Origin: Yuukianura sp. NJ FZ-2021
Taxonomy: Eukaryota
Reading direction: 5' to 3'
NCBI GenBank assembly: GCA_046563655.1
Contig: CM102290.1
Span: 8,494,001 to 8,558,000, forward strand
Length of the DNA stretch: 64,000 bases
Shown here: positions 10,912 to 39,663 of the stretch, one piece after another
How the letters are laid out: every line of letters begins with the position of its first letter
Numbering within the stretch: position 1 is the stretch's first letter
Made by a program: the position numbers and the translations under genes
Notes under the pieces: generated by a model
Seen by the model: only the letters and a program-made list of their open reading frames with translations
The model's database searches: none
Told to the model about the DNA's origin: nothing

Positions 10912-12036
10912 TCAAATCTCTTGACGATTTTCAAGGACTTCGGATTCCAATGCAGGCACTGCAGCCCGATTGTCGCCAACACTAATTCCTTGAACATTTT
11001 CGGGCAAGTAGTCTTTCCAACTTCGGAACAAATAGCGGGTAAATTTTCGTAATTGTCTAAATTTACAATAAGTTGCACCTTCAGCAGATTCCAGCTGCTG
11101 CGTCTGAATCAGGAATCCTTTTTCCTTGAACGTTTTCTCCAGTGTCTCACGCATCAGCGATTTTCTCGTCCTACGCTTGCGTTTACTCGAGTCCCTACAC
11201 GACACGACTGACGCCGAGTCATCTTCGGAAGACGAGGAGCAGTCTTCCGCTCGAGACGGAGAGTGGATAGGCGAAGTCAGTTCCGAAGGGTCTACAGGCT
11301 GGAAGCTTCCAGCGCTCTGAGGTACTGGAAACGGCTGAATCGCTGGCACTTGTGGTATTTTACAGCCGAGAAGATGACCTTGACCTTTGACTCCCCGACT
11401 CGGCTGTTTGTCTGAATAAAACCGAAAGTTCCCGCCAGAGTCAACACTGAGCATTTTCTTTTCCTGGAGCGTTGGTTTCACGCCTCCGGTAAATTTGAAC
11501 TTGCAGATACTCACTTCTGACGGTGGGGGAGGGGGGTGGGGCGGTGGGTGTGAGCCCAACTTGTCCAGCAATTTCTTCGTACGCTTTCTGGAGCGTGGGG
11601 GTGGGGCAAGTGGCTTTGGCCTGACTAGAACTGAATCACTGCTGGTGGTAGAGGGGTGTCTTTTGTCACGTAAACAGAGGTTGAGGGGTTCTTCCGGGGG
11701 GAGTGCGGGGTCAGGGGTCACCACCCCCGGATCAGACATCACCGGAGAGGTGTCATGACCTTGAACTAGAGTCGTGTTGGGGTGATTGACGTAGGTCAGG
11801 GGGAAGGAGATTCCATAGTTTTTGGATATGAGGTGGCAAATGTCAGCTTTCTTGGGCTTCCGGCCGCGCCGTGGCCTTGTGTCAAATGTCATTTCGCCCA
11901 TGTACGGCAAGTTGTTCATGAGGGTTCCGGTGGCTGGAAGTCCACACTTGTCGCCTTCGAGTCCATGACGCTTCTGACGACTTCCACTGTCACTGGAGTG
12001 ATCCAGCCGCCGCCCGGCTGAACTACCCGTGGCCAT
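10912..12036 (-). CDS. Uncharacterised protein, probably nuclear (374 aa; true start may be Met40 at 11919)
   Basis: Uninterrupted 374-codon GC-richer ORF in AT-rich DNA; basic PRRGRKPKK motif, EPLNL motif, NLS-like KRKRRTRK, ordered C-terminal block ATYCKFRQLRKFTRYLFRSWKDYLP; upstream splice acceptor (tttcaattttcag) near 12426. Confidence 0.75.
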   Translation of the reverse strand: MATGSSAGRRLDHSSDSGSRQKRHGLEGDKCGLPATGTLMNNLPYMGEMTFDTRPRRGRKPKKADICHLISKNYGISFPLTYVNHPNTTLVQGHDTSPVMSDPGVVTPDPALPPEEPLNLCLRDKRHPSTTSSDSVLVRPKPLAPPPRSRKRTKKLLDKLGSHPPPHPPPPPSEVSICKFKFTGGVKPTLQEKKMLSVDSGGNFRFYSDKQPSRGVKGQGHLLGCKIPQVPAIQPFPVPQSAGSFQPVDPSELTSPIHSPSRAEDCSSSSEDDSASVVSCRDSSKRKRRTRKSLMRETLEKTFKEKGFLIQTQQLESAEGATYCKFRQLRKFTRYLFRSWKDYLPENVQGISVGDNRAAVPALESEVLENRQEI

Positions 12037-14047
12037 AGGGCGCTGAATCCATCTTGACCTTTGACCTTTAGTCTACTGCTAATACTGGACGCTTCGGCTT
12101 CTGGCAGCTTCTCTACTCCGCCGTGTCTTCATGTCGACTTCAGTCGAGAAACAAAAGACGGGAATGGCAGTGGAAGGTGAAATTCGCCTGAATTCGTCCA
12201 AGCTCAAACAGGGTTTGTCAATCTCTTCATGCAAAATGTTGGGTGGGTTGTTGGGTTTCATATGAGAAAGGGGTGAATCGAAAAAGAGGAGGGTGTAGTT
12301 GTAGAACGTTTTTTAGTAGTTGCTTAAGAAACCACTAAAATTTTGAAGACTTAAACAGACTTATGAGTAAACCGCATTGACCCATTTCATTAACCCGGAA
12401 ATCCCGAAGGGGTATATTCACAATTCTGAAAATTGAAACAGTTGTAGTTACTAACTCAAAGACTAAATTCTACTTTTTTGAATTTTTTTTGCGTATGCAA
12501 AAACCCATACATTTTAAGCCATTAACCCTCCGGGGTTTAAGCCTTGACCCCGCCAAACCCTGGCGGAGAAGAGGTGAAAGAAATCTCGAGTGAATTTCTT
12601 TTCATTATATTTTTGGGCCTCCACTTCACCAAAATTTCTGCACCTCATCCCTGATCTTCTTTTTCGAAAAAATGCCGATTCGAATTATATTGCAAAAAAG
12701 TGGAGTTCCAAAAATAGATTTTCTCAAAAACCGAAACGTTTTTTCGCTTTTCAAATACAAAGGGAAAAAAGGCCCGGTTTTTCTTCAAAAAAAAATACCA
12801 CAAAAAATTTTGCAAATGCAAACATATCACTGGTCCAACTTTTGCGTAGTGTTCAAAATTAGTCTATTTTGAGCACTACACACTTTTGAAAGAAAATCTG
12901 AAAAACTTTTTTTTACAAGTGCCAAATATGGACTAGATCCAAAATTCGCTTTGAAACACTGTGACTTCGGATCTATTTTCAGGTTTTCGTTCCAAATTCA
13001 AACCGAAAAACGTGTCGGAAAATTTTCAGACCAAAATTTATTTCGGAATAAAAATTCTTGATCAAAACATTTCCGCTTTCGTCAACTTCTTTACCAAAAA
13101 AATTCGACGAGGCAATTTAAAGGTATTTTTCTTTTTCTTCAAATTTTAGCTTTGATTATTTTGATTCAAAAATTCAAAATCTTGCTTCTTTGTGTGATGC
13201 AGAGCAAACTCACTACTTGATGCAAAAACTCGATGATTGATGCAAAAATTTGGCGCCTGAATTCAAGCATCTAAAATGCTGCATCTTTGCAAAGTAAAAA
13301 AAAACACAAAACCAAAGAAAAAAAACTTTTTTTTTTGGCTTTTCATAACTTTCTCTTACACCAATTTTATTTCATCGGTAAGATTTTCAATTGAACAGAA
13401 AATAGAGCAAGGTTTGAACAAGTTTTTTTGAAACCTTCCGTAAATATGACATAAACCAGTGCCACCGAGCAAAGGTTATTTACAACACACACGCTTTCTT
13501 GGAAGGACGCCTGTTCTCTTTTCCGCTTTTACATTTCTCAAGTTCTTCCCTTATTTGAACATAGTACATAAGGGAATATTAGAACTAAGGAAGACTATAT
13601 ATATAACGAAAAAAAAAACATAAATAGATTCAACTCTGACTCTCATAAATAAATAAAAATAAAAGCAGCCAATTACAATTTGGAAAACAAACAACAAGTT
13701 TTGAACAAAAGCCATTTTAAAATGAGAGGGAACCGTTATGTTTTAAGCCAATAACATTTTAGAACTTTTTCTGGAAAAAAGTTATTCCATTATTTCCAAC
13801 ATTTGTGCAAAAACAGGCACGAAACAAAATTAATTGTACCAAGAGAAAAAGTTCACTCGGGTAGGAAGTATGCTATAGAATTGTCAAGTGATTGGGGAAG
13901 GATTATAGGGAAATTAATTGGTTGGGAATTGTAAAGCATTTGAATTAATTGACAGTTAGAAATCTTCAATGTTAGTTCAACTATTTTGAGTGACAACTGA
14001 TGAAGTTAAGAGGAAGCAGAAAAAGGTGTTCACGGTTTAGCTCATTT

Positions 14048-17000
14048 TTAGCGACTGCTCGCAGTCGACCAGTCTTCATTTTTGACTTCCTTCTCGGGCG
14101 GAGCCCAAATGTCGCTTACGAATGGATTGAATCCAAGTCCAGCCTGTTTCAAGAAACAAACCTTTTAAGTTTTCATATTCCCGACAAAAAAAAAACTGTA
14201 ATGTAAACTTATTTCATGTCTACCTCAATCTCCCGTTGATTTTGTAGTCCAATTCCGTTTCCAGAGTTGTTGCGTAGTGGATCCGGGCGTGTTACAGCCA
14301 AGTTAGTAGCAGGACGGGGTGTTGCAGTGTCCGATGAGAATTCCTGTGACCAGTAAAAGTTCGAACGACTCTGTGGTGGTGGATTTTGCCAAATGTCAGA
14401 CATTGAGCGTCCCTCGCGTCCGTTAGTGTTTCCCAGTCCATCAAAATCGGCTCGGTCAAATGGCGAAGAGCGGGTTGTTGGCAATTGGTTAGACCATCCG
14501 TTTCCAGTTGATGCCAAATTATCCGAGTTTGGCATAAATCCAGGAGGGGAAGTATTTCGAACGCCTTGTTCCAAACGACTCTGGTAAAACGATGTTCCCG
14601 GCCAGTGGTCTAAACATAGAAATAATATTAAAAATTCATACCACTAAAAGTAGCGTACCCTAGATAGCATCAGAATACACAAAAAATCTTACTGTCCATA
14701 GAAGAGTGGTATGACGGGAGAGCAGAGTTGTCCGACAAACCATTCAAATGTCCACGAGAAGAACCAGTAGAAGCGGATGTGAGCGTCGCAGTGTTACCGC
14801 CACTTTGAGTATTTCGTCCATATTGAGATTGTGAGCCAGTACTAGGGAGCCGATCATAAGAATTCATGTGCCAAAGTGTCGAGAGCAAGTCAGCAGGAAG
14901 AGCCGAGCTAAAATTGCATAGTTCGTTGTTAGAGCTAGGTGGAGTAGTGGAAGAGGGCGGTCGTCCGAACGGCGGAATGCTTGAAGTTGATGACGAGGAC
15001 GGATACAATTCCATTGAAGAACGAGAAGGACCATTCGAGTTGATCCTACCATCCGAATTCCGAGTTGGTTCCCAAGGTCCACTAAATCCAAGATTCGATG
15101 AGTGGTAAGCCGGTGGTTGGTTGGAAGTCATCGTCATTGCCAACGTAGTGAAAACTCCATTTACAAAGCTTCCAGTCGACGTAGCCGCGGAAGTTGATGG
15201 GGTTTGACGCGGCTGGCCGATTACTCCTGGACGACGTACAGTATTAGTATTGTTGCTTCCTGTAGCTCCACTTTGAATGCCATTTTTGTAGACGTTCCTT
15301 TGATGTTGTTGTTGATGAATTGACGGCTCGATACCTCCGTTCTGATTTCCAAACTGTTGAGAGTAAAAGGGTGGTGGCCGCATAATTGCATTCGGAATTG
15401 CACTGTAGCCCGGTGGTGGAGATGTGTACATTTGAGTGGAACCATAAAGTTCATGTCCCGATCCGGATGAAGCTCTTCGTTGCAAAAATCCATCTTGTAG
15501 TCCACCATCTTGAGACAGGCGTGGCGTTCCAGATCGCGAAGGAAAATCCACTGGAGATCCGCTGCCTAAAAGCATAAAGTTGTCAATTATAAAACACATT
15601 AGTGCTTTTTGTTCAAGTTGTTTGCCCGGTGAACGATTACTTACCATGACTTCCAGAACTCGAAGATCCACTCAACTGTTTCTGTTTGAAAGTTCCCGCT
15701 TTCTTAGTTTCAATGTTGTTATTGTTTATAGACGTGGAAGAAGTCAGTGGTTGCTTCGTTGTCTGGCGATTACCGTTGCTTACTGTAGTTGGAGAGAAAG
15801 TATTTCTAGTCAAACTGGAGTTTTTCAAATCCAACAGTTTTGGAGCCTCGGCAGTAGTTTTGAAATTTTCAACGTGTGAAAATGTGGAAGTCACGCCTTG
15901 ATTTTTCTGTTTCTTTGAAACCTGCTTCTCCTTGCGTTGCACCTTGTTTGAAGCCTTTGCTACTTCCACAGTTTCGGTAGTAGTCGTTGCTGATAAATCT
16001 ACTGGTGAAGGAGTTGTTTCTGGGGTATCCAAATGTTGTTCATCAGTTACAGGAGAAGTAGTTGACGGCCGAGATTGAACTTCTGCAGAGTCAGATGGCT
16101 CTTCCGACTTAGCTTTCGTAATAGGTTGCGTGGGCGTTTTTGGTTTGAGAATCTGACCCCTCCCCTTCCGTTTTCCAATTACTTCAGTATACTTCTTGGT
16201 TTCTGGAAGGACAGGCGTGCTTGATTCAGCAGTATGCCCAGGTTCCTTTTCTTCTACTTTGATCCATTTGGCTGTTGTAGCCGTACTCGTACTGTCTCCG
16301 CTAGCATTAAGTTCTGAAAGATACGCCGCAGTCTTTGAGTGGTGATTGTTCTTTTTCCTATTCCTGAGACCAATGGGTTGGTATGTGTCAGGACGAGTCT
16401 GTGTTTGAGTTTGCGCAGTAGTCGCAGTCGGTGCAGTGGTTGGAGCCGGTGGTGTTGAGAAACTCACAGGAAGAGTAGTCGATGGTGGTGGGCTTCGTTG
16501 AGGCGGAGTTTGACTTGCGTTACTCGGTTTAATTTTAGCAGCTAGTGGAGCTGGAGTGGCAGGTTGCGGTGATTGAACGTTTAGTTCTTGCTGGCTTCGT
16601 TTAAATCGATTGTCCACTCTTTCGTAAACCTCCCTTAGGTCAAACTTGATCTTATTTTCATCTTGTCCAGACAAATCTAAAGAAATTTACTCCTCACTTC
16701 AGTACAATCTTCTTTTCAAGTGACAACGAAAGCAAAAAGGACGAATACTTTGTAATTACCTTGAGCAGGTCGTACACGCACAGTGGACAGGATTGCTTGA
16801 GACACAATATGATTTGCATCGAAGTAGGCAAAGCACGATGCAGCCACGAATCCACTGAAGACGACAATCATAAGAATGTACTTGAGCGATTGTTCCCACG
16901 AGGGTCGTGTGATAATAGTCGAACAAGTGTCAAGCATGGCACTAGGAATCATGGCAATGAGTGTATAGTTGTAGCACTGCAAACCAAATATAAGTTTGAA

Positions 17001-20000
17001 TTTAATAAACATAACATGATGCATTAGCTAGGAAAGCTAAGGAATAAGAATAATTTACCACTCCATTAGAATCCAGAAGTCGCAGAGAACGAACCATTCG
17101 TGACATTGTAAAATCCGGCGTGTAGGCAATATCTATTGAATGGGTTTCGTTTGGTTGAAGTGTAAAGGCATTACAGTTCAAAATTCGGAATCCGAACCCT
17201 TCACACGATTCACCGGCGGATAATGTCCAGAAGCCAGGCCAGTACCCTTGTGGTGGATAAATCTCAATGACGTCAATGTTCAGCGGGATGTCACCAACAT
17301 TTCGAGCCAGAAATGATCGCCGAACTGTTAGCTGAGGTGGTAAGTACTTGCTCGCCGATGCTTCTACGAAAAAATGTAGAAAACAAGCAACCAGTAATCA
17401 GCTGTTCCAGCTAGTATATTGCATTGAATTGAATATCTAAAAAAAATATTGGAAGATTCGTTCTAACATTAAGCTAAATGAAAGTAGCCAACTCACGTTC
17501 ACATCCTTGAAGTAGTTTTTCAGTTATCTGAAACAACAGGGAAGATCCAGGAGTTCCACTTCCCAAAGTCAACAAGCCAGTGCCCGCACGTCCCTTCACC
17601 CACATTGTCTCAACTCCGGTCAAGTTGTTCCTAAAAACATTAAAGTTTTTGGTTGCACTTGATTCAATTTACGCAATACGGTTACATTACAAGGTAAAAA
17701 TAAGCTTAACTAGTAACCCAAAGTGTGACATTAGACAATCCATAACACAATACCTGATTATAATCTGAGTTGACGCTACTTGTTTTGATATCGGTTTGAA
17801 GCGACAGCGTAAGTAGAACTTAGCCGAAGGCGGAATCACAAATGACACACCAACTCTGGGTTTCGTCTCCATAAAATCCCCAACGATTGACCGTTGTACT
17901 TCCGTAAATATTCCAGACTTCTCAGTCGACTGACTGGTATCCGATGCTAGCCCGTTCAAAGAGAATACTGAAAACAATTACAACGTTATTCTATCGCATC
18001 ATGAAAATTTCCGAGTTGCTACCTCTTAATTACCAAGTATTCGAAATTAACGTTGTTATGCAGTGTGGCTTACCTAGCGCTCCTTCAGTGATATTCCCTC
18101 CTACACCGTTTCCATGAACATACTGTAACCAGTTCGGTCCATACTCCGTTCCCATCAGAGCGTGCACAAACAACGGTGTACTTGTGGGGTTATGAACCGG
18201 TACATCAATAAAAGTTTCATTTCCAATAGCCGTCAACGGAAATACGACAGCCTTTGATCCGGTGATCCTCGGCCACATGTAATTGACCTTCGTTGGTATC
18301 TTGAACCCCTTGGCAGCTCCCGTCTCCACCCAAAGTGTCATATTTGACACTAGAAACAGAATAATGGCGGTTACAACGATTATCTTAACGATTACCGGCA
18401 CTTTAATCCTCTTCTTCTTAAGTCTCCTTAGCCTGGGCATCCTTTCTACCGTTACTTCCTTCATTGTTACACTAAAGACTAAAGTTCAATTGTTCTTAAT
18501 CAGACTATCAAAAACTAAAACTGACGATTGTTGACTGTTCAAATCCCGATTAACTCTTTAGCTGTCACTTTGACAAAGTTCCAAACTGGAATGAAGGTAT
18601 TTTTACCACCAAAGAACAGAACACAACAAAAAACGAACGAAATGCGGAATGAAGGAAAACGTTGCTGAACGAGTGAATTCAGTTTCAGACAAAGGAATTG
18701 CCGTTCTCCTTCGCCTCAACCCCTCTCCTACGCGCTTGTTCCCATTTTAGCCTTCTTACAGTCTCCTTCAACAGAGGGACACACTATACGTAAATTGGGT
18801 AAATGCTGATCATTGATTACTGTAATTGTACACTACTCTATAACACATTCTCAAATGAAATTATTGTTGAAAAAGAAAAACTAAAAGCTATAATCCGCAG
18901 TATTTGCAAACCGAAAGATAATAAAATTCAATGAACTAACATAACGTTCTGTTCTCGACGAAGAGCAGCCGAGTGAAAACAAGAACAGTTATAAAACTGA
19001 TATGTAGAAGTTAAGAATCAATTGGATTAGTAAATTGGACTTACGATTGAGTTCTTTAACGTCATCAAAACGATTTTGTAGTTTCTTCAAAATGTTCCAA
19101 TCCACTTCGGCACTGTCCCAGTTGATATCACTCGCTCCAACCCAGTCTTTCCCCACTGAAAAATAAATTCAGCAAGTTACATTATGTATACAAACATAAC
19201 ATAACACATTTACACTCATTCTTTGTACTGTACAAGCATAAAACAATATCAACTAATTCCATAGTATTCTTAGTTAGTTTGTATGACAAGATGGCGAAGG
19301 CTGTTGAAAAGAACAGAGTAAATCAGTCATCCAAAGAAAACATGAAATTCAATCCATTTTCAAATTCAAAAGAGTCCTGCATATACAAAGGTCAAAAATC
19401 GGTCGAAGTAAACTTGGGCCCCCCGCCTGTCCCCACCCGTTCAAATTTTCGCGCTGCTTCAATTGTCCCCACCCATTGTCCCCACCTGGTGGGGACAAAT
19501 GTCCCCACTTGGTGGGGACAGATCTGTACCCACCAGCCGTACACCGAGTCCCTCTAGCGGCTGAATTGGAACTAGCAAATTCGAGCTGGCAACGTTGTAG
19601 CATTGCTCCGTTGTACCCACTCAGGGCAGATGTAATCAACATAGCGAAATTCAATAAGTCAAACCTACTGACGTAATCAGTATTGCGTGCTTTACCAAAC
19701 CTAACGCCGCGCCTTCGGCGCGGGAAAATATAACAGGATTTACCAAATCAAAAAGGAAAAAACGTTGCCAGCTTGAATTCAAAGGTTACTGTATTGCCGC
19801 TAGGTGGACACACTGCTTTTGGTTGTGGTGGGGACAAATGTATCCATCCGGTGGGGACACTGGGTGGGTACAATGGAGGCAGCGCGAAAATTTGAACGGG
19901 TGGGGACAGGCGGGGGGCCCAAGTTTACTTCAACCCAAAAATCAACATTTAAACTCCACTTGTCACCTTTGTCAAAAGAATCATGGTGACCCATTGACCT

Positions 20001-23000
20001 CGTACTTTGGTATCGGTTACGTAGTTACATATTACATATCACATGTAACACACAAATCAGGACATACAGTAACGGACCAACACAATCGAATGAAATCAAG
20101 TCATCAGAAGATATCTAGCTGATTGCTGATTACTATAATTTCGGTTACGATTTACATCAAAGTCAAAGCTTATAGAAATGACTCACTTGGTGAATCTAGT
20201 AAAAATCCAGAATAGCATTCCTGTCCACAGAGTTGTTTAGGATCAAAATGAACTTTTCCAACAAGAGTTTTGCGATGTGGAAGAATATCCAAGTGTTGCA
20301 TTGACATGGACGTAAACCACAGCGGAACTCCTTCTGGACGAGCAACAATATTCCTCAAACCAATCGTTTGGTTGAAGGTTGAGCTCAAGTGTAGTTTTTC
20401 TATTGAGATCTTTCCCTGTAAAACAAACAAAAAAAAACATATCAATAACTACCAAAACCATTCTTTAAAGAATTGACAAAAGGAAAACTTGACCTTTTGA
20501 CACTTACCGGAAACGCTTTGTCAAACACAACCATATCACTCTGAACGGATCCTTTGGACACGGCCACGCTAAAACGCACACGCAGCGTTTGGTTATGATC
20601 TGTAGTCACAAACGACTCTCCAGTAAACACGCCTTCCACCGTTGGATCCTTGACTTCAACAGAGAAAACAGCCATATGACCCGGTTGAAGAAACAACTAC
20701 AACAAGAAGTCAGTTTGTTACAATTCAACTTCACTATTCGAAAATTTCAAACCAGTTGAACTTTGACCTTGACCTACCGATTTCTTCAGCCCATCGAAGT
20801 TTTCTTGCATTTTGGCGAGATCTTCCTTCCTTCCTTGTCTCATACCCACCAGATCAACCTGTGCCCATGTAATGTTTGAACCCCATGACTTCAGCCTCAC
20901 TTCCACCGGATTCAAATTCCCCACTGAAAAGTATTCAATATGAGTCGAATAAAGTTCCACCCTCCCAAACTTCAAGTGACTCCCTTCCAAAGTGTGCTAA
21001 AATTAAAAAAAAAAGTTATCTTTCATTCAAAATTCATCAAAAAGTTTCAGTCATTTCCATTCTTGTAACCCTACCGCTTGTAACTTTCCATCGTAGCAAC
21101 TAATTGGTAACTTCTTGGCAGTGACGTTGCTCTTGAGAGTAAGAAATATTTCTGATTTGGGATCACACAGTTCTGATGGATTCTTGACCTTGATCCGGAA
21201 GAGGTCAACTTGTTCTCCAGAAGGAACTATGATCTGAGACGAACCATTTCCACTGTTGAAGTTTGTCAATTTCAACACCTCTGGATGACTGAGAGTCACT
21301 TCGTAAATGGCAACAGCAGTTGGAAAAGTATTCCGAATACTGAAATTTTCAAACAAGTATTACAGTTCATTGTCAAAATTCCTCCAAATTTTATTTTTAT
21401 CCCCATCACCTCATCGTTTTCCAAAATTACCTAAAATTTCGAGTAGGATAACGGCTCGTTTTGACAAAAAAGCCAAGCGAAGAACTGTTGTATTCCAGCT
21501 CTCCGCTGAGTACGACTGCCCGAAATGGAATAGTAATTGCATCACCGTGATCGCTACAAATCTCGACAAAGCCTGTCGTGTCTTTCGGGTTAGAAACTTC
21601 TGACGCTATTCAAACAAAAAAATCAAATCAAAACCTTGATTTTCAAAATCCATTCTTGACCCTTAAAAACACATTTTTCTTAAAGTTGTCCAACTTACGG
21701 TCAAAAGTTACAAGAGCCACGACTGTTGAGGCGGTACTGTCTTGCTCAATAGAGATTGGACGAAACTCTATCTTTACAGCTCTGTTCGGGTTTCCTTTGA
21801 CCGTCACGGACTACAACAGCAAATAAAGATATTATATAAATAAAACACAAATATTAATACCATTACATTTATATGTGAAGTATTATGCATTTTTCTTTTA
21901 CCTGCACATTCACTGTGAGTTGTTGAGCATTGATGAGTGACAAGGACAGTGTCTTCGGCTTATCCGTCTTCACCAAAAGGCCAAAATCCAGTGACTCTTG
22001 TGGTGAGTAGATTCCAGGAGACGAGCTCACTTGAACTTCCACTGGAACTAGTAGGTACTCTGACCCAGTTCTTGTACTATTCACTCGAATTCTATATCAT
22101 ATAAAAAGAATTCATATCACATTCAATTAGGTATAATCTTGTTTCTTTAAGGTGCGTTTATGGTTATTGCTACAAAATTACTTGATGTAACCAGTATGAT
22201 TTCCTTCGGCCTTGCCCTGGAACGTTCCCTTCATAACCGGTTTCGTCTGAAATGGTTCGATGGCCCATGCTCCCTCCTCTCCCCCTTCCAGGGGTTCGGG
22301 CAGAGACAGGCGGAAGTCAGAGCCACTGGACAAGATTTCTACGACTTGAATTCTACTGCCATGCGGATTGTGCATAGTGATCAGCGGCTCATAACTTCCG
22401 TTCACCGGAATTCGAGCTCCGACTAAAGGTTTCAGTCTATATGGATTCGGCAGTCCTATTCCTTGTACCTTCACCAAAAATACAAAACATTAATTAATTG
22501 AGTTGCACAAGAAACGTTTCAATTAAGTTCAGTCGAAAACTTTCGACTCACATAGTATTTAAATAGCCCTTTAGAGGTATGGATGTAGAGGTTGGAGTCT
22601 ACCAAACCCTCGGATCGGCTCAAGAACACAATTTCAAACGTTGTATTACTGCCGGGACTTATTACCTAAAATCATAACAAAATCATGAGTAGTCCCACTT
22701 TGTTGGTGGTGGCGGTCATAAATCATTCCAATTTTGTGTGCATTTTCCAACCTTATCCGCAAAGAATGAAGAATGGAAGTGGACAGTACTGCCCGAGATA
22801 GAGATCAGTTTCACACTTTCGTCCGTCAATTTGTTATCCACTCTAACGACTCCTAGACTTGGTATTCCCACAGTACTGCAACAAAAACACATAACATAAG
22901 TGCTTTTTAAATCGCATCTTAACTCTTCATTTCAATTAAGAACGGAAGCTCTTAAGATAGAATTAGCACAGGATTTTACCTCTCTTTGAAATCCAAAGAT

Positions 23001-33534: not shown

Positions 33535-34618
33535 GGTGCCTATTTGTTCATTAGCAATTTGTTATGAGTAATAACCAGCTAATTATTTATATTTTCATAT
33601 GCTAGGTAGGAATGTGTAGCAGGTTTTGAATATCTCTCAAAATATGATTCCAAAGTCCCAAATTTTTACAATTTAATTTCGTTTAGCACCATAGTTTTTG
33701 AATTTAATTTTGAGAGGAGTTGAATTGGGTTTTCAGGTTTGTTGGGGCGACAAAACTCTAGAGACGCGGCTTGTTCTAGCGGTGTTTCCTTACCTTATCG
33801 TCTTCTAGAGGCGCTTTCTTTGATGTCTAGAATCTTTGACTTGTGTTGAATTCGTCAGTCAGTGGATGGAGTAACGATAATGTTTCGACATTGTACACAG
33901 ACAGAGACATGATGCAATTTGGGATTTGGAACCAACACGGATCCAGTCATAAATTCTCTGGGGAAAACAAGAAGATGCGGACTTGTCCAGCTCCAACCGA
34001 TCCAATTTTTCATTTGTCAAGGGTCAAGTTACAACAGTTTAAGTAAATTAGCTTACCTAGTAACACACCACTTGACATCCTATGCATCAATCCAATTTTT
34101 AGGAATCCAATTTTGAAAAAGTTTTTTTTTAAGTTCATACTGTTCGACAAAGTTCAAAGCTCTTACTAAACTTTGATTAAATCGTCTTTCCTCTTTTCCT
34201 TTTGAATTTATCTTCAACCGCTTAGAGTTGGACGCATGCATTAGTGATATCGCCATTGTTTTTAGAATTTCTTTTGATTCAGTTTCAGGTCAAAGGTCAA
34301 GCTCAAGGTCAATGACACCTCAGTATGTTAAAAGGAGGGCGGGGTAATGGTTTCTGCTAATGTCAAAATCCCAAATTCATTTCTATAAGAGTGTCTTTGG
34401 CAATATCGCGTTTTCGATAGGCGCGAAAACTTTGAACTCTTTTGGATCAAAAACAGAAAGAAAACCGCAATTGATTTCGACTTTTCACAAGTTTGTTCGC
34501 CTCGGTAATCAGCGTGCAGCTAAATAAAAAAGAAATTAACTTCCGATTATCGATTAAATTAATGCGAAATACACTTGAAAGACCAGCCTAGTAACTCTAC
34601 CAGTCATTAGCGGTAACA

Positions 34619-35388
34619 ATGGTAAGTTTCGCATTCTCATCTTACCGTTGTAATTTCAATATTTCATGAATTCTTAGAACTTAGAACCTTGATGAAAATT
34701 GCTAATTGGTTTGGTTGTGGCATAATGGAATACCTTTTTCTGATTCCTGTAGTTGCCACTGTCAGTAGTCCGTTCGGCACATAATCTTCCGGTGGTATGT
34801 AATAGACACCTTCAAATTTTCATTATTTGAATATACATTCTTTTTCAATTCTGTAGGTCGAATTTGGACCAGGAAAGAGGAAACAATACCTAAGCTGTTT
34901 AATTTTGTTTGTAGTTGGTTGAACTCAAGAGTGGAGAGACCTACAACGGTCATTTGAAAGCCTGTGATGGATGGATGAACGTTTGTCTCGTAGATGTCAT
35001 TTGCACTGCACGAGACGGAGATCGATTTTGGCGAATGCAAGAGTGTTACATTCGTGGAACAAATATCAAGTACCTCCGTATCCCTGACGAAGTCCTGCAG
35101 TTGGTCAAGGATGAACAGGGTTCGGGACGCGGTCGTGGCGGTTTTCGTGGACGTGGAGGCGGAGGACGCGGTGGACCTCCAAGAGGTAAATCAATTAATG
35201 AAATAACCTTAACAGTGACTGTTGGAATTTCTAATTAATCAATTACTTTACATCAAGGTGGAGGACAAGGTGGACGTGGAGGTGGAGGCGGAGGCAGTGG
35301 AGGGTTCAATCCGCGCGGAGGACGTGGTGGTTCGTTTGGTGGTCGTGGAGGAAGGGGAGGACGTCGCGGCGGGAACCAGCAGCAGTAG
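34619..35388 (+). CDS. LSM4: U6 snRNA-associated Sm-like protein LSm4; exons: ATG only (34619-34621), ~34753-34794, 34915-35185, ~35258-35388
   Basis: [37 protein letters not shown]...[22 protein letters not shown] followed by an RGG-rich tail ending NQQQ*. Confidence 0.95.
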
Positions 35389-35983
35389 CTCACTGTTTAG
35401 AAAAATACTAAGTTAAGTTAATTAATATTTATGTTCATTTTGTATTAATTAACCGCTAAGCTCCAGTGTACAATAAAACAAAAGACTAATACCAATACAA
35501 GAGTTCACTTACTCACTGATCAATTACCACTGATCACCACAACCGTCTTTAGAACAAAAGTACACCAAATTAGACTGACCAGATAGAGATATACTAACAT
35601 ATATAAGCGATTTTTGTCTAATGATCTTACCAAGTTCAATTTTTTTACACAAATCGTTCCTCCCACAAATTATCCAATTTAGTACACCGGGTGTACTATT
35701 AGGGAAAATACGGTATCTAAACTGTTTGATTTGTTAAATTGGCGAGTGGAGGGAAAATACGTGACAAAATTTTTTGAAAGAAAAGCGCGAAAGTTTCCTT
35801 GGCATACCGGTACTAGTGGCTTTGACTTTTTATCATTCAAAATCTTTGGCAAAGTCGTGTGTCAGCTGATCTCGTCCTTCTCTCATCTTCTATCTACCAC
35901 CCGCGAGTACAAGACCGGTTGTCGATTAAATTGATTGTACACCGATTAGTCTAAGCCTCATTTAATTTCACTTCCTCTGCAAC

Positions 35984-36657
35984 ATGTCGTTCGGTGACGT
36001 CTCAACAGCTGCTGGATTGGCTAAACTCAATGAACATCTCAAGTCCCACTCCTACATCGAAGGGTAATTTAGATTAAGAATTTGCTAATTTTTGCACATG
36101 AATTCCAACAGATTAACAATTGGCTGATTCTGAACAGGTATTCTCCGAGCACTGCTGATACCAAAACGTTTGATGTCATCAAATCCACTCCGGATTCTTC
36201 ACATCCTCTTGTCCTCCGATGGTACAATCAAATCAAGAGCTTCTTCGGAGCATTGAAAGCCAGTTTCGGGGCATCCGGAGCATGTGCTGCTCCTGTCAAT
36301 AACGGTGCTGCTGATGAGGATGAAGATGTTGATCTTTTTGCATCTACTGAAGAAGAGGTAATACTTTTTATAAAAGGATTGACTGGGCAATTGAGAATGT
36401 AATAATGTGTTATGGTTCGCAGGATGCCGTGGCAGCCAAGATTCGAGAAGATCGTGTCAAAGCCTGCGCAGAGAACAAGAGCAAAGAGCCTGAGTCCATT
36501 GCCAATTCAAACGTCATCCTAGATGTCGTCAAACCGTGGAATGACGAAACAGATATGAAGAGTGAGCATCAAAACCAGATTTTCCGTATGATTTTTTTGT
36601 GGACTGAATTGATTTTTTTCATTAGACCTGGAAGACGCTGTGCGCTCTGTGGAGATC
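35984..36657 (+). CDS. EEF1B: Truncated, diverged elongation factor 1-beta copy (5' part of a putative chimeric gene, or a partial pseudogene)
   Basis: MSFGDVSTAAGLAKLNEHLKSHSYIEG|YSPSTAD...LRWYNQIKS...DEDEDVDLFAS..EEE|...KIREDR...SNVILDVVKPWNDETDM.|LEDAVRSVEI; similarity stops before the canonical DGLVWG...DIAAFNKI C-terminus; three intact GT-AG introns. Confidence 0.88.
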
Positions 36658-36801
36658 AGTTTTTCTGCTTTAAGTGGGGTTCGTTTTCCATCTACTCCAG
36701 GAACGTTAAGTAATCACAATGAAGTGCAGAATCAGTCTGCTACATCGAGTTCATTCGTTGAACCACTTCATGATGCCGGTCGTTTCTCTTGCACTGCCAC
36801 G

Positions 36802-38921
36802 ATGGATTCCATTCCAAATGAAGTAAGGTCAACTTGATTTCTAATTTGTTAAGTTCAAAACTAAACCCTCGAGATTGAAGCCAATCAATAGTTAAACGTT
36901 TGTTTCAATCCACTGTTTGTTGGATCTACATTCCGTTGAATAACGTATTTTAAAATATTTTTAACGTATTATAAAATATTTTAAGATTCATCATATCGAA
37001 ACAAGAATTTTGACAAGCTTAAGCATGTCAAAATAAGTTTTAGAAATGTTCTTGTTGACGTCTTAGTGTAAAATTGAATGTTAAACTCCGATTTGACATA
37101 AATAATCTATGTGATTATTAACAACAATCTTGTCTTTCAGATTCTGCTTCAAATAATCGGTTGTTTGAGAAAACAAGAAATAGCAAAGTTACGCCTGGTG
37201 AACCACCGATTCAATCAACTTTCAACGACATGCTTGCCAAAGTTGTTTCGGGTGGACTTTCTGGAAGACTCGGACATTGTGAAGTTTATTTCTGTGTTTG
37301 AACGAAACAAAACTTTCGTTCCGTTCCAAAAGTTTGGATTTGGTAAAAATCTCTTGACGTACGGACAGCCGTTGGATGAGTTTTGTGTCAAATTTGGAAG
37401 TATTGTGAAATCCTGGCGATTTTGGATGTGCGTCGCTCCTCAACCGGAACACGAGAATTCACTTTTAAACAACATCCAAATCCTGTTTGACAAATTCGAA
37501 AATGTAGAAGAAATCGAGTACCCAATTGTGAAAGAAGAAATGTCCAAAGCTGTGGAAATTCCTGTACTAAAAAATTTGGAAACAATCAACATCGACTTCT
37601 ACGATTCTGAGGACCAATACGACGATTCCCCTCTCCTGGATCTTTTGCAAAAAGCTCCAAATCTTAGGAACGTTTCAATTCAAAACTTTGATGATATACA
37701 CAATTACGACTCATTATACCCTGCTTTGGTTCCAAACCTCCTAGACAAGATCTACAGAATCAACGGACGCGTCCTCATTCAAAAGTTGGTTGTACTTGTA
37801 CAGTTTCCGGCTTTGAATATGGATGAACTCGAAAACTTGGTTGCAATTTCAACAAAATGCAAAATCCTGGATTTGGAATTATTCCTAATGCCCCGGGATC
37901 CCAGTTCTGGAAGTGCATCACAAACACTCGAAATTATCTCAAATTGGATTCATAATCTGACATCGTTGCGCAGACTTTTTCTGGAATGTCAGGACACCGA
38001 TGATTCTAGTCCAATTACACTTCCTCTCCGTTCTCTCGCAAACATTGCATGTTTGGAGTTCTATTTTCTATGCGAATCTATCGCCTTGCGCCAACCCGTG
38101 GAATTTCCAGCTCTCACAACGCTCGATTGCATTTATCGTGGAACAACCGATAAATTCATCTTCGCTGGATGCATTTTTCCAAATGTGAAATTCGCACAAA
38201 TCTATTTGAAAACGGAGCAGGAACGTCAACAGTGGCCGCTAGTACTCCCCAACGTTACTGACTTGTGCGTTGTGTCTGAAACATTAGAAGGCATTTTCCG
38301 GTTTCCGAAAGTCCAGAAACTGCACATTTATACCGAGTCCGAGACTCCTGGACCTGATTGGGACCGTGACCTTCAACTTAAACACTGGAACCACCTAACT
38401 AATGGAGCTCAATACATCTCACACAGCATGATTACCAATTCTCTCCTAGAAACTGGCAAAACTTCGGAATCAGTTGACTCCTTTCGCAATTTTCCGGGTA
38501 AGCATAATATTTTAAAACACAATTTTAATTTTTGATGGATAAATTAATAATTTTAAAGTCGCAGTGCTTGTATTAACAAATGTTTCTGTTTTTAACTAGT
38601 GCTGACACATTTAAAGTTCCTCCACTGCAGCATTGAGTGCTGGAAGGGCGTTATTTATGCCAGCCAAACTGGGCAACTCCGACGCCTTCAAAAACTCGTT
38701 TTCGATCCTAGGGTTTTGAATGAGGTAAGTGTTGAATCACTTTCAAAAGTTAGTACTAATATTTCAAAATTTGAAAAAGAAGAACATTTAAATAAAAATA
38801 TAATTTGTAGTTTGAGAAGGAGCAGTATCTGGAAGTATTGATGAAGTACCACGATTCAGCCATTACTACTGCAGAACATTGCATACCACCGTTCCTCTGG
38901 AATGAATTATTTCTGGATTAA
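36802..38921 (+). CDS. F-box protein with LRR-like C-terminal region; exons ..36822, 37141-38497, 38600-38724, 38811-38921
   Basis: F-box consensus assembled across a phase-0 intron: MDSIPNE|ILLQIIGCLRKQEIAKLRLVNHRFNQL; LxxLxL-type segments (LKNLETINI, APNLRNVSI, LTSLRRLFL, FPALTTLDC, FPKVQKLHI); exon phases are consistent to TAA at 38919-38921. Confidence 0.82.
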
Positions 38922-39663
38922 ACAACCGCATCTGTCCAACCTTTTTTCATCGATACAATCTTCCTAAGTTTCTACAAGTAAACACTAATTCTAATACAGA
39001 AAAAGCTAGTTTAGTAGAAATGAATTCAGTCAATCAATCAATTCAACCCATAAGTGCAATTGCTACTATTTTTTTAGATTTAAGCTTTAGTTTAAGAATA
39101 CTCCGTCCGTCTCAAGCGCCAAAATACTGTATAAGACCACTCAAAGCTAAATGAGCTCATGCTAATCCTCTCGTAACGTATAGTCATTAAAACATAAGCT
39201 TAAACGTAATACACTTTGGTACACAAAATAAAAACAGCATTTGAGAAAATAATTAAGACATTTTTGGATTTAGAAATTTTTAGTACGGCATTTTTTATGT
39301 CAAACATTCAATTTGTTCCAAATAAAGCAAAGTACAGCTCAGAATTTTTTTTAAAGTTTTTTAACTTTCAGTTTTTTCCAGCCCAAAGTTTACTCAATCA
39401 GTTGAAGTTTTCTTGAATGGTTTCTCCCATCCCTCAGCACTACAAAGAAAAATCCAGTGGAGAAAATTTTTATGCAAAGACTTTTTTCCTCAGATCTTGC
39501 AATCACACTTAATTAAAATTAATTTTAAATCAACTTCCCGCCTTTTGTTGGTATTCGAGTCATTGATTCCTTTTTCAAATTACTCTCACCTAAAAAAGAA
39601 ACAATTTTTTACTGTTGACGCACTTCATGTTTCGAAATTTTGAAAAACAAATTGTGTAAAGCT

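Follow-up and report, generated by a model that had tools for sequence, protein, structure and literature searches.

Does a locus in the genome of Yuukianura sp. NJ FZ-2021 encode a single protein that joins the front of a translation elongation factor to an F-box protein, or do a gene fragment and an independent gene lie there side by side? The locus is on the forward strand of contig CM102290.1 (assembly GCA_046563655.1), within a stretch of 64,000 nucleotides (nt; contig positions 8,494,001 to 8,558,000) that we call the window. All coordinates are those of the window, which is animal nuclear DNA with short GT..AG introns. An initial annotation, made from the sequence alone, had proposed an in-frame fusion of a truncated EF1-beta (eEF1B-alpha) gene with an F-box/leucine-rich repeat (LRR)-like gene. 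At the DNA level, and barring misassembly, a chimera of a 5′ partial EF1-beta gene and an F-box-type gene is real, and we found no earlier EF1-beta/F-box chimera in the literature searched.

Seven exons, running from 35984 to 38921 on the plus strand, form one frame of 2229 nt, i.e. 742 codons and a TAA, which agrees with the open reading frame (ORF) of about 742 amino acids (aa) first proposed. The six introns (74, 65, 64, 318, 102 and 86 nt) are all GT..AG, the splice sites are usable and the frame is continuous across the junction between the two parts. The components are as follows, GEF standing for guanine nucleotide exchange factor:

35984-36063 (+), exon 1: EF1-beta N-terminus, with the ATG at 35984
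36138-36357 (+), exon 2: EF1-beta N-terminal domain and acidic stretch
36423-36561 (+), exon 3: central acidic helix, then the beginning of the GEF domain; one GTC codon is duplicated
36626-36657 (+), first 32 nt of exon 4 (36626-36822): last EF1-beta-derived codons, ending ...VRSVEI in the alignment
36658-36801 (+), linker within exon 4: 48 stop-free codons, Ser/Thr-rich, without detectable homology
36802-36822 (+), end of exon 4: ATG and six codons (MDSIPNE), the first residues of the F-box motif
36823-37140 (+), intron 4: 318 nt, 28% GC, donor GTAAGG
37141-38497 (+), exon 5: remainder of the F-box, then a region of irregular repeats resembling leucine-rich ones
38600-38724 (+), exon 6: frame continues, with a motif (...THL.FL....CW...) also found at the C-terminus of P0003, the relative of the F-box part described below
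38811-38921 (+), exon 7: TAA at 38919-38921, with ATTAAA at 38917 and AATAAA at 39227

The first part derives from EF1-beta. Exon 2 matched the Protein Data Bank (PDB) chain 5dqs_D, 'Elongation factor 1-beta' (E 1.9e-4), and for exon 3 the matches were 2n51_A, the C-terminal region of EF1-delta (E 7.7e-10), and 1b64_A, the exchange domain of EF1-beta, the latter over its residues 3-21. Among 49 candidates from a word-index search, two proteins matched exon 2, the better of which (P0001, from a metagenome) was 66% identical (E 1.2e-19); a homologue search with exon 3 returned none of six candidates. Scanning metagenomes with P0001 as seed gave 20 EF1-beta loci from diverse eukaryotes, P0001's own contig not among them. 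Full-length frames were obtained from seven of the 20, and after removal of L009, which is near-identical to L006, six full-length EF1-betas served as the reference set. When compared with the window by tblastn, these six matched in exons 1-3 only (summed E 1e-13 to 1e-25). The tblastn and 5dqs_D matches together identify the N-terminal domain as homologous to the EF1-gamma-binding domain. In the alignment, similarity extends through the first ten codons of exon 4 (...LEDAVRSVEI) and stops at 36657, exactly the abrupt end noticed at the outset, and the four EF1-beta-derived exons recognised then do have intact splice sites, GT..AG throughout. P0001 appears to share the window's intron before ...YSPS..., where its ORF reads in from intron-like sequence. 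It has no intron at the position of the window's intron 2 and has one inside ...AAKKAK..., so EF1-beta intron positions differ between the two organisms.

The break leaves the exchange domain (Pfam PF00736; 91 residues in 1B64) incomplete. Similarity reaches about residue 33 of 91, comprising residues 3-21 of 1b64_A and about 11 further residues, so that the domain is cut after about one third of its length, in line with the proposed loss of most of the GEF domain. Compared with EF1-beta (eEF1B-alpha; 5DQS, 1B64), the window copy shares the N-terminal domain, the acidic region and the first GEF strand and helix, whereas about two thirds of the GEF domain are absent. A stub of this kind cannot act as a GEF, given the structure of the eEF1A:eEF1B-alpha complex. 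The C-terminal two thirds were not found by tblastn in the six frames of the window. A displaced C-terminal exon, as expected if the F-box gene were nested in an EF1-beta intron, was considered and rejected, the best candidates having E 0.63 or worse and not being colinear. Within the 64-kb window, no normal C-terminal exon was found to which the EF1-beta part could be spliced.

From the breakpoint to MDSIPNE, the linker stays open for the 48 codons originally counted, with no stop and no in-frame ATG; the residues S, T, N, Q, P and G make up 54% of it. Translation of a coding linker would therefore have to come in from the EF1-beta exons. No residual EF1-beta similarity was found in any of three frames, 45 to 232 of 300 shuffles reaching the observed score. 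The idea of a hidden, frameshifted GEF remnant was discarded (z -0.67 to 0.88; three frames, two modes), as was ...KWGS... in another linker frame, which was not significant. Because the break falls inside an exon, reads of an EF1-beta gene and an F-box gene misjoined at about 36657 could in principle have produced it. However, the window contains no N, there is no repeat at the junction and the window holds no second copy of either side, nor any paralogues or repeats able to mediate the join. In addition, aberrations run through the entire EF1-beta part, which is therefore not just the normal gene in a wrong join. For these reasons we consider an assembly artefact very improbable.

The second part carries a putative F-box motif at its N-terminus. 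As first proposed, the phase-0 GT at 36823 joins 37141 to complete an F-box, although the F-box match itself is sub-threshold: exon 5 alone scored 16.1 bits against Pfam F-box-like PF12937 (cut-off 24.3; E 0.0094) and 10.1 bits against PF00646 (cut-off 20.5), these scores covering exon 5 only, with profile positions 1-7 falling in exon 4. The F-box-like match starts at profile position 8 of 47, which is the first residue of exon 5, and MDSIPNE occupies the place expected of positions 1-7, in support of the 36822/37141 splice. The F-box pattern is matched by ...IPNEILLQI...LRLVNHRF... and, in the ESM Atlas, the clusters nearest to exon 5 are F-box families (0.93-0.95). After removal of the F-box, exon 5 gave Atlas leads at 0.83-0.88, some of them FBXL-type LRR proteins. 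A search with HMMER against 1.84 billion representatives returned one relative only, P0003 (E 2.1e-8), which in pairwise comparison with the F-box part is 25% identical over about 300 columns (E 4e-14), and whose C-terminus resembles exon 6. P0003 itself matches LRR_14 below the cut-off (E 0.006), and exon 5 matches Pfam LRR_R13L1-DRL21 at E 0.13. None of 4250 candidates was accepted as a homologue of the F-box exon at E<=0.001, PDB sequence searches with the F-box part gave chance-level matches only, and NCBIfam returned nothing for it.

The initial 'F-box/LRR-like' label is therefore soft: the F-box score falls short of the cut-off, and the canonical LRR pattern is not enriched (3 matches against 4.0 expected). 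Units of the form P-N/K-h-x-x-h-x-h number 9, where 1.6 are expected, and recur at intervals of 19-34 residues in the second half; the motif was chosen post hoc, and the count is hence descriptive only. Compared with FBXL-type SCF substrate receptors, the window protein is alike in its N-terminal motif, its proximity to F-box clusters in the Atlas and its repeated units. It differs in that its F-box is below the Pfam cut-off, it has no PDB match, no LRR enrichment and only one relative, and it carries a foreign leader of 205 residues.

Whether both parts are used together depends first on transcription, for which three upstream features are relevant:

35870-35899 (+): pyrimidine-rich tract, 25 of 30 nt C or T, upstream of the EF1-beta-type start
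35915-35935 and 34543-34563 (+): 21-nt motif, a direct repeat of 86% identity with the core TCGATTAAATTRAT
34620-35388 (+): LSm4-like gene, ATG at 34620, stop at about 35386-35388, AATAAA at 35472

The pyrimidine-rich tract, noticed previously at about 35871-35895, is a possible TCT/TOP-like initiator region, its promoter role being putative. The 21-nt motif precedes two start codons by 50-77 nt, that of the LSm4-like gene, which comes directly before the chimeric locus on the same strand, and that of the EF1-beta-type exons; we take it to resemble a DRE-type housekeeping promoter element. Its 14-nt core has two exact matches in the window, these being the only ones (shuffles gave a mean of 2.3 at <=2 mismatches). 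That the tract and a motif common to the LSm4-like neighbour still stand upstream of the EF1-beta ATG speaks for one chimeric gene. Downstream, neither AATAAA nor ATTAAA occurs on the plus strand from 35925 to 38791, and hence none lies between the two parts. Since exon 4 combines an EF1-beta acceptor with an F-box donor and no poly(A) signal intervenes, a chimeric mRNA would be the default if the upstream promoter is alive.

We propose that the first exon of an F-box-type gene received, at a join within exon 4, a 5′ partial copy of an intron-containing gene of the eEF1B-alpha type, which comprises exons 1-3 and 32 nt of exon 4 together with the promoter-like region. If transcribed from the EF1-beta-type promoter and spliced at the exon-4 donor, the locus would by default give one mRNA and a protein of 742 aa, composed in order of the EF1-beta N-terminal domain, the acidic region, a dead GEF stub, the 48-aa Ser/Thr-rich linker, the F-box and the repeat region. 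At its N-terminus no sign of a signal peptide was seen, no predictor having been run. The working part would probably be the F-box/repeat module, a presumed SCF substrate receptor. The likeliest contribution of the EF1-beta part is a promoter of housekeeping type, together with the start of translation and an extension at the N-terminus. That the two parts are transcribed and translated together, like any binding, is what we infer from this arrangement, and we give about even chances to the fusion protein being made, if only as one isoform.

Translation of the leader, now or in the past, is suggested by its state of preservation. Over 471 nt, the EF1-beta part is free of stops and frameshifts, its single codon duplication leaves the frame intact, and it keeps all six splice dinucleotides. 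It has nevertheless diverged: across residues 1-157, 14 of the 46 columns that are invariant in the six distant EF1-betas are changed in the window, two of these 14 being changed in P0001 as well. The stretch ...AYA.KKSKKP... has become ...ACAENKSKEP... (Y to C, K to N, K to E), and ...DVKPWDDETDM... has gained one residue in ...DVKPW... through the GTC duplication and changed D to N. Both details first named for the GEF remnant, the altered motif and the duplicated codon, are present, and there are no frameshifts or stops, as had been described. We simulated neutral decay at a d of about 0.14, which reproduces this divergence (about 25% amino-acid change). When only substitutions were allowed, the frame stayed open with a probability of 0.16 and the six splice dinucleotides were kept with a probability of 0.19, and any realistic indel input, at assumed indel ratios, made frame survival much lower. 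An intact frame and intact splice sites in the face of this divergence suggest that selection has maintained an open frame, if perhaps only until recently.

The same changes bear on what the copy can do. According to a passage of PMC9458455, loop D21-V29 and helix C50-I59 of human EF1-beta contact EF1-gamma in PDB 5DQS. The core of that loop, ...SYIEGY..., is kept in the window. The helix reads PLVLRWYNQI against CHALRWYNHI in 5dqs_D, so that three otherwise invariant positions (H, A and H) are changed. With invariant residues altered, GTC duplicated and the contact helix changed, this copy is, as judged from its sequence, not the organism's working EF1-beta and not obviously 'young', the age that had initially been assigned to the chimera. 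The proposed tethering to the eEF1B complex is weakened by the altered helix.

Several observations weigh against a fusion protein made from one mRNA, beginning with the F-box part itself, which appears to have everything needed to stand alone: a favourable context for its ATG, motifs that resemble initiators and a first intron that is long. The context at ATG 36802 is good (A at -3, G at +4), and the ORF that starts there, of 537 aa, begins with the F-box; F-boxes usually stand at the very N-terminus. TCAGTY, the arthropod initiator consensus, occurs twice within exon 4, once precisely on the breakpoint (36656) and once at 36732, among 46 occurrences on this strand of the window. Chance is also not a negligible source of the open linker. 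A run of 144 nt was open in a given frame in 7.6% of noncoding-like windows and in 8.5% of linker shuffles, which with a 1-in-3 frame match makes an accidental in-frame join about 2.5-3% probable, a value not negligible across the many windows scanned. The linker's codon log-odds score was 9.0 when trained on the window's own long ORFs (coding windows, 4.5 +/- 3.1), a score reached by 1% of 635 stop-free noncoding-like windows. With training on globular proteins only, it fell to 4.0-5.8, which 9-23% of controls reached, and so under stricter training sets the score fails to separate the linker from noncoding DNA. Since the full training set includes Ser/Thr/Pro-rich proteins, the codon test is weak, though compatible with coding. 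The estimate of neutral decay supposes that all changes came after loss of function, and the altered contact helix may mean that the leader no longer binds EF1-gamma. Finally, a relative-rate test against P0001 was not significant (12 against 6, p 0.24), so that a changed selective regime rests on the invariant columns; acceleration appears clear at strictly invariant sites only.

Several of these points would be accommodated if the EF1-beta exons were a dead or dying partial duplicate and the F-box gene began within exon 4, giving the 537-aa product from ATG 36802 and leaving the open frame across the linker as an accident. The loss of many invariant EF1-beta residues, in the GEF stub as elsewhere, would then be expected, and intron 4 would be a first intron, these often being long and AT-rich as it is. 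But the frame and all six splice dinucleotides would have had to survive despite the divergence, the linker would be coding-like in its codon score by coincidence, and no poly(A) signal would end the upstream transcript. Moreover, out-of-frame ATGs at 36719, 36770 and 36773 in exon 4 create an upstream ORF of 39 codons that extends over the F-box ATG in any mRNA that starts before 36719, which is a burden for an mRNA starting at the breakpoint. We regard two separate units as somewhat unlikely, though still a serious contender. Were the locus not expressed as one unit, it would be an ordinary partial-duplicate relic beside an ordinary gene.

The intact frame, arguing for translation of the EF1-beta part, would also fit a truncated EF1-beta paralogue. 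If intron 4 were retained, or the transcript terminated in it, read-through of the donor would meet a stop after four codons (36835-36837), and the product, of about 216 aa, would be close in length to normal EF1-betas (about 206-230 residues in the reference ORFs). Such a protein would consist of the N-terminal half of EF1-beta with a new tail and is possibly a decoy for EF1-gamma, the F-box gene being separate or a second isoform. However, intron 4 contains no AATAAA or ATTAAA, its donor GTAAGG must work for the F-box gene, and the helix through which a decoy would contact EF1-gamma is altered. We think this outcome improbable.

Returning to the proposed fusion protein, its strongest form is equally improbable in our estimate: that the 742-aa protein is made and its EF1-beta domain docks on EF1-gamma, stationing an SCF-type receptor on eEF1B, or that the GEF-less module competes with the normal subunit. 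Protein degradation would in that case be coupled directly to the translation elongation machinery, and an EF1-gamma-binding surface that still works would link SCF ligases to the eEF1B complex. Expression of the fusion would make it a clear example of a new gene, a fast-evolving F-box gene having been given the 5′ half of a core housekeeping gene together with the promoter, and the exonic breakpoint being still readable. A lineage-specific ubiquitin-ligase receptor would thereby have become strongly and broadly expressed and acquired a new N-terminal domain, all in a single event.

New genes are known to arise as chimeras through partial duplication with a breakpoint inside an exon, and jingwei and Sdic are reportedly chimeric new genes of Drosophila. 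As in the Drosophila chimeras, the break here falls within an exon, and one gene has received in frame the 5′ portion of another together with its promoter. In contrast to them, the donor in the window is a core translation factor, and the Drosophila genes come with expression and population data whereas the window locus is known from its sequence alone. Formation of chimeric genes in Drosophila by partial duplication or illegitimate recombination is treated, for example, in PMC1463047, and partial-duplication chimeras in PMC3449122.

The remainder of the window contains neighbouring genes of the following Pfam families: Tudor and SNase, TMEM131-like Ig, sulfotransferase, IRS-type PTB, LSM, and RRM. 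Rfam and transfer RNA scans of the 64-kb window gave no matches. The first coding exon of the LSm4-like gene is apparently the ATG alone, with GTAAGT directly after it. Direct repeats rich in GGN, at 35146-35372, code for the Arg/Gly-rich tail of this gene. On the minus strand, large Ser/Thr/Pro-rich open frames of 386, 333 and 349 aa at 10912-12072 and 14670-16686 match no Pfam family and adjoin TMEM131-like Ig-domain exons at 17002-18485. At 19349-20122, two long open frames on opposite strands, neither with a Pfam match, share near-identical peptide stretches (...RENLNGWGQAGGPSLL...), which suggests an inverted duplication of a coding-like segment.

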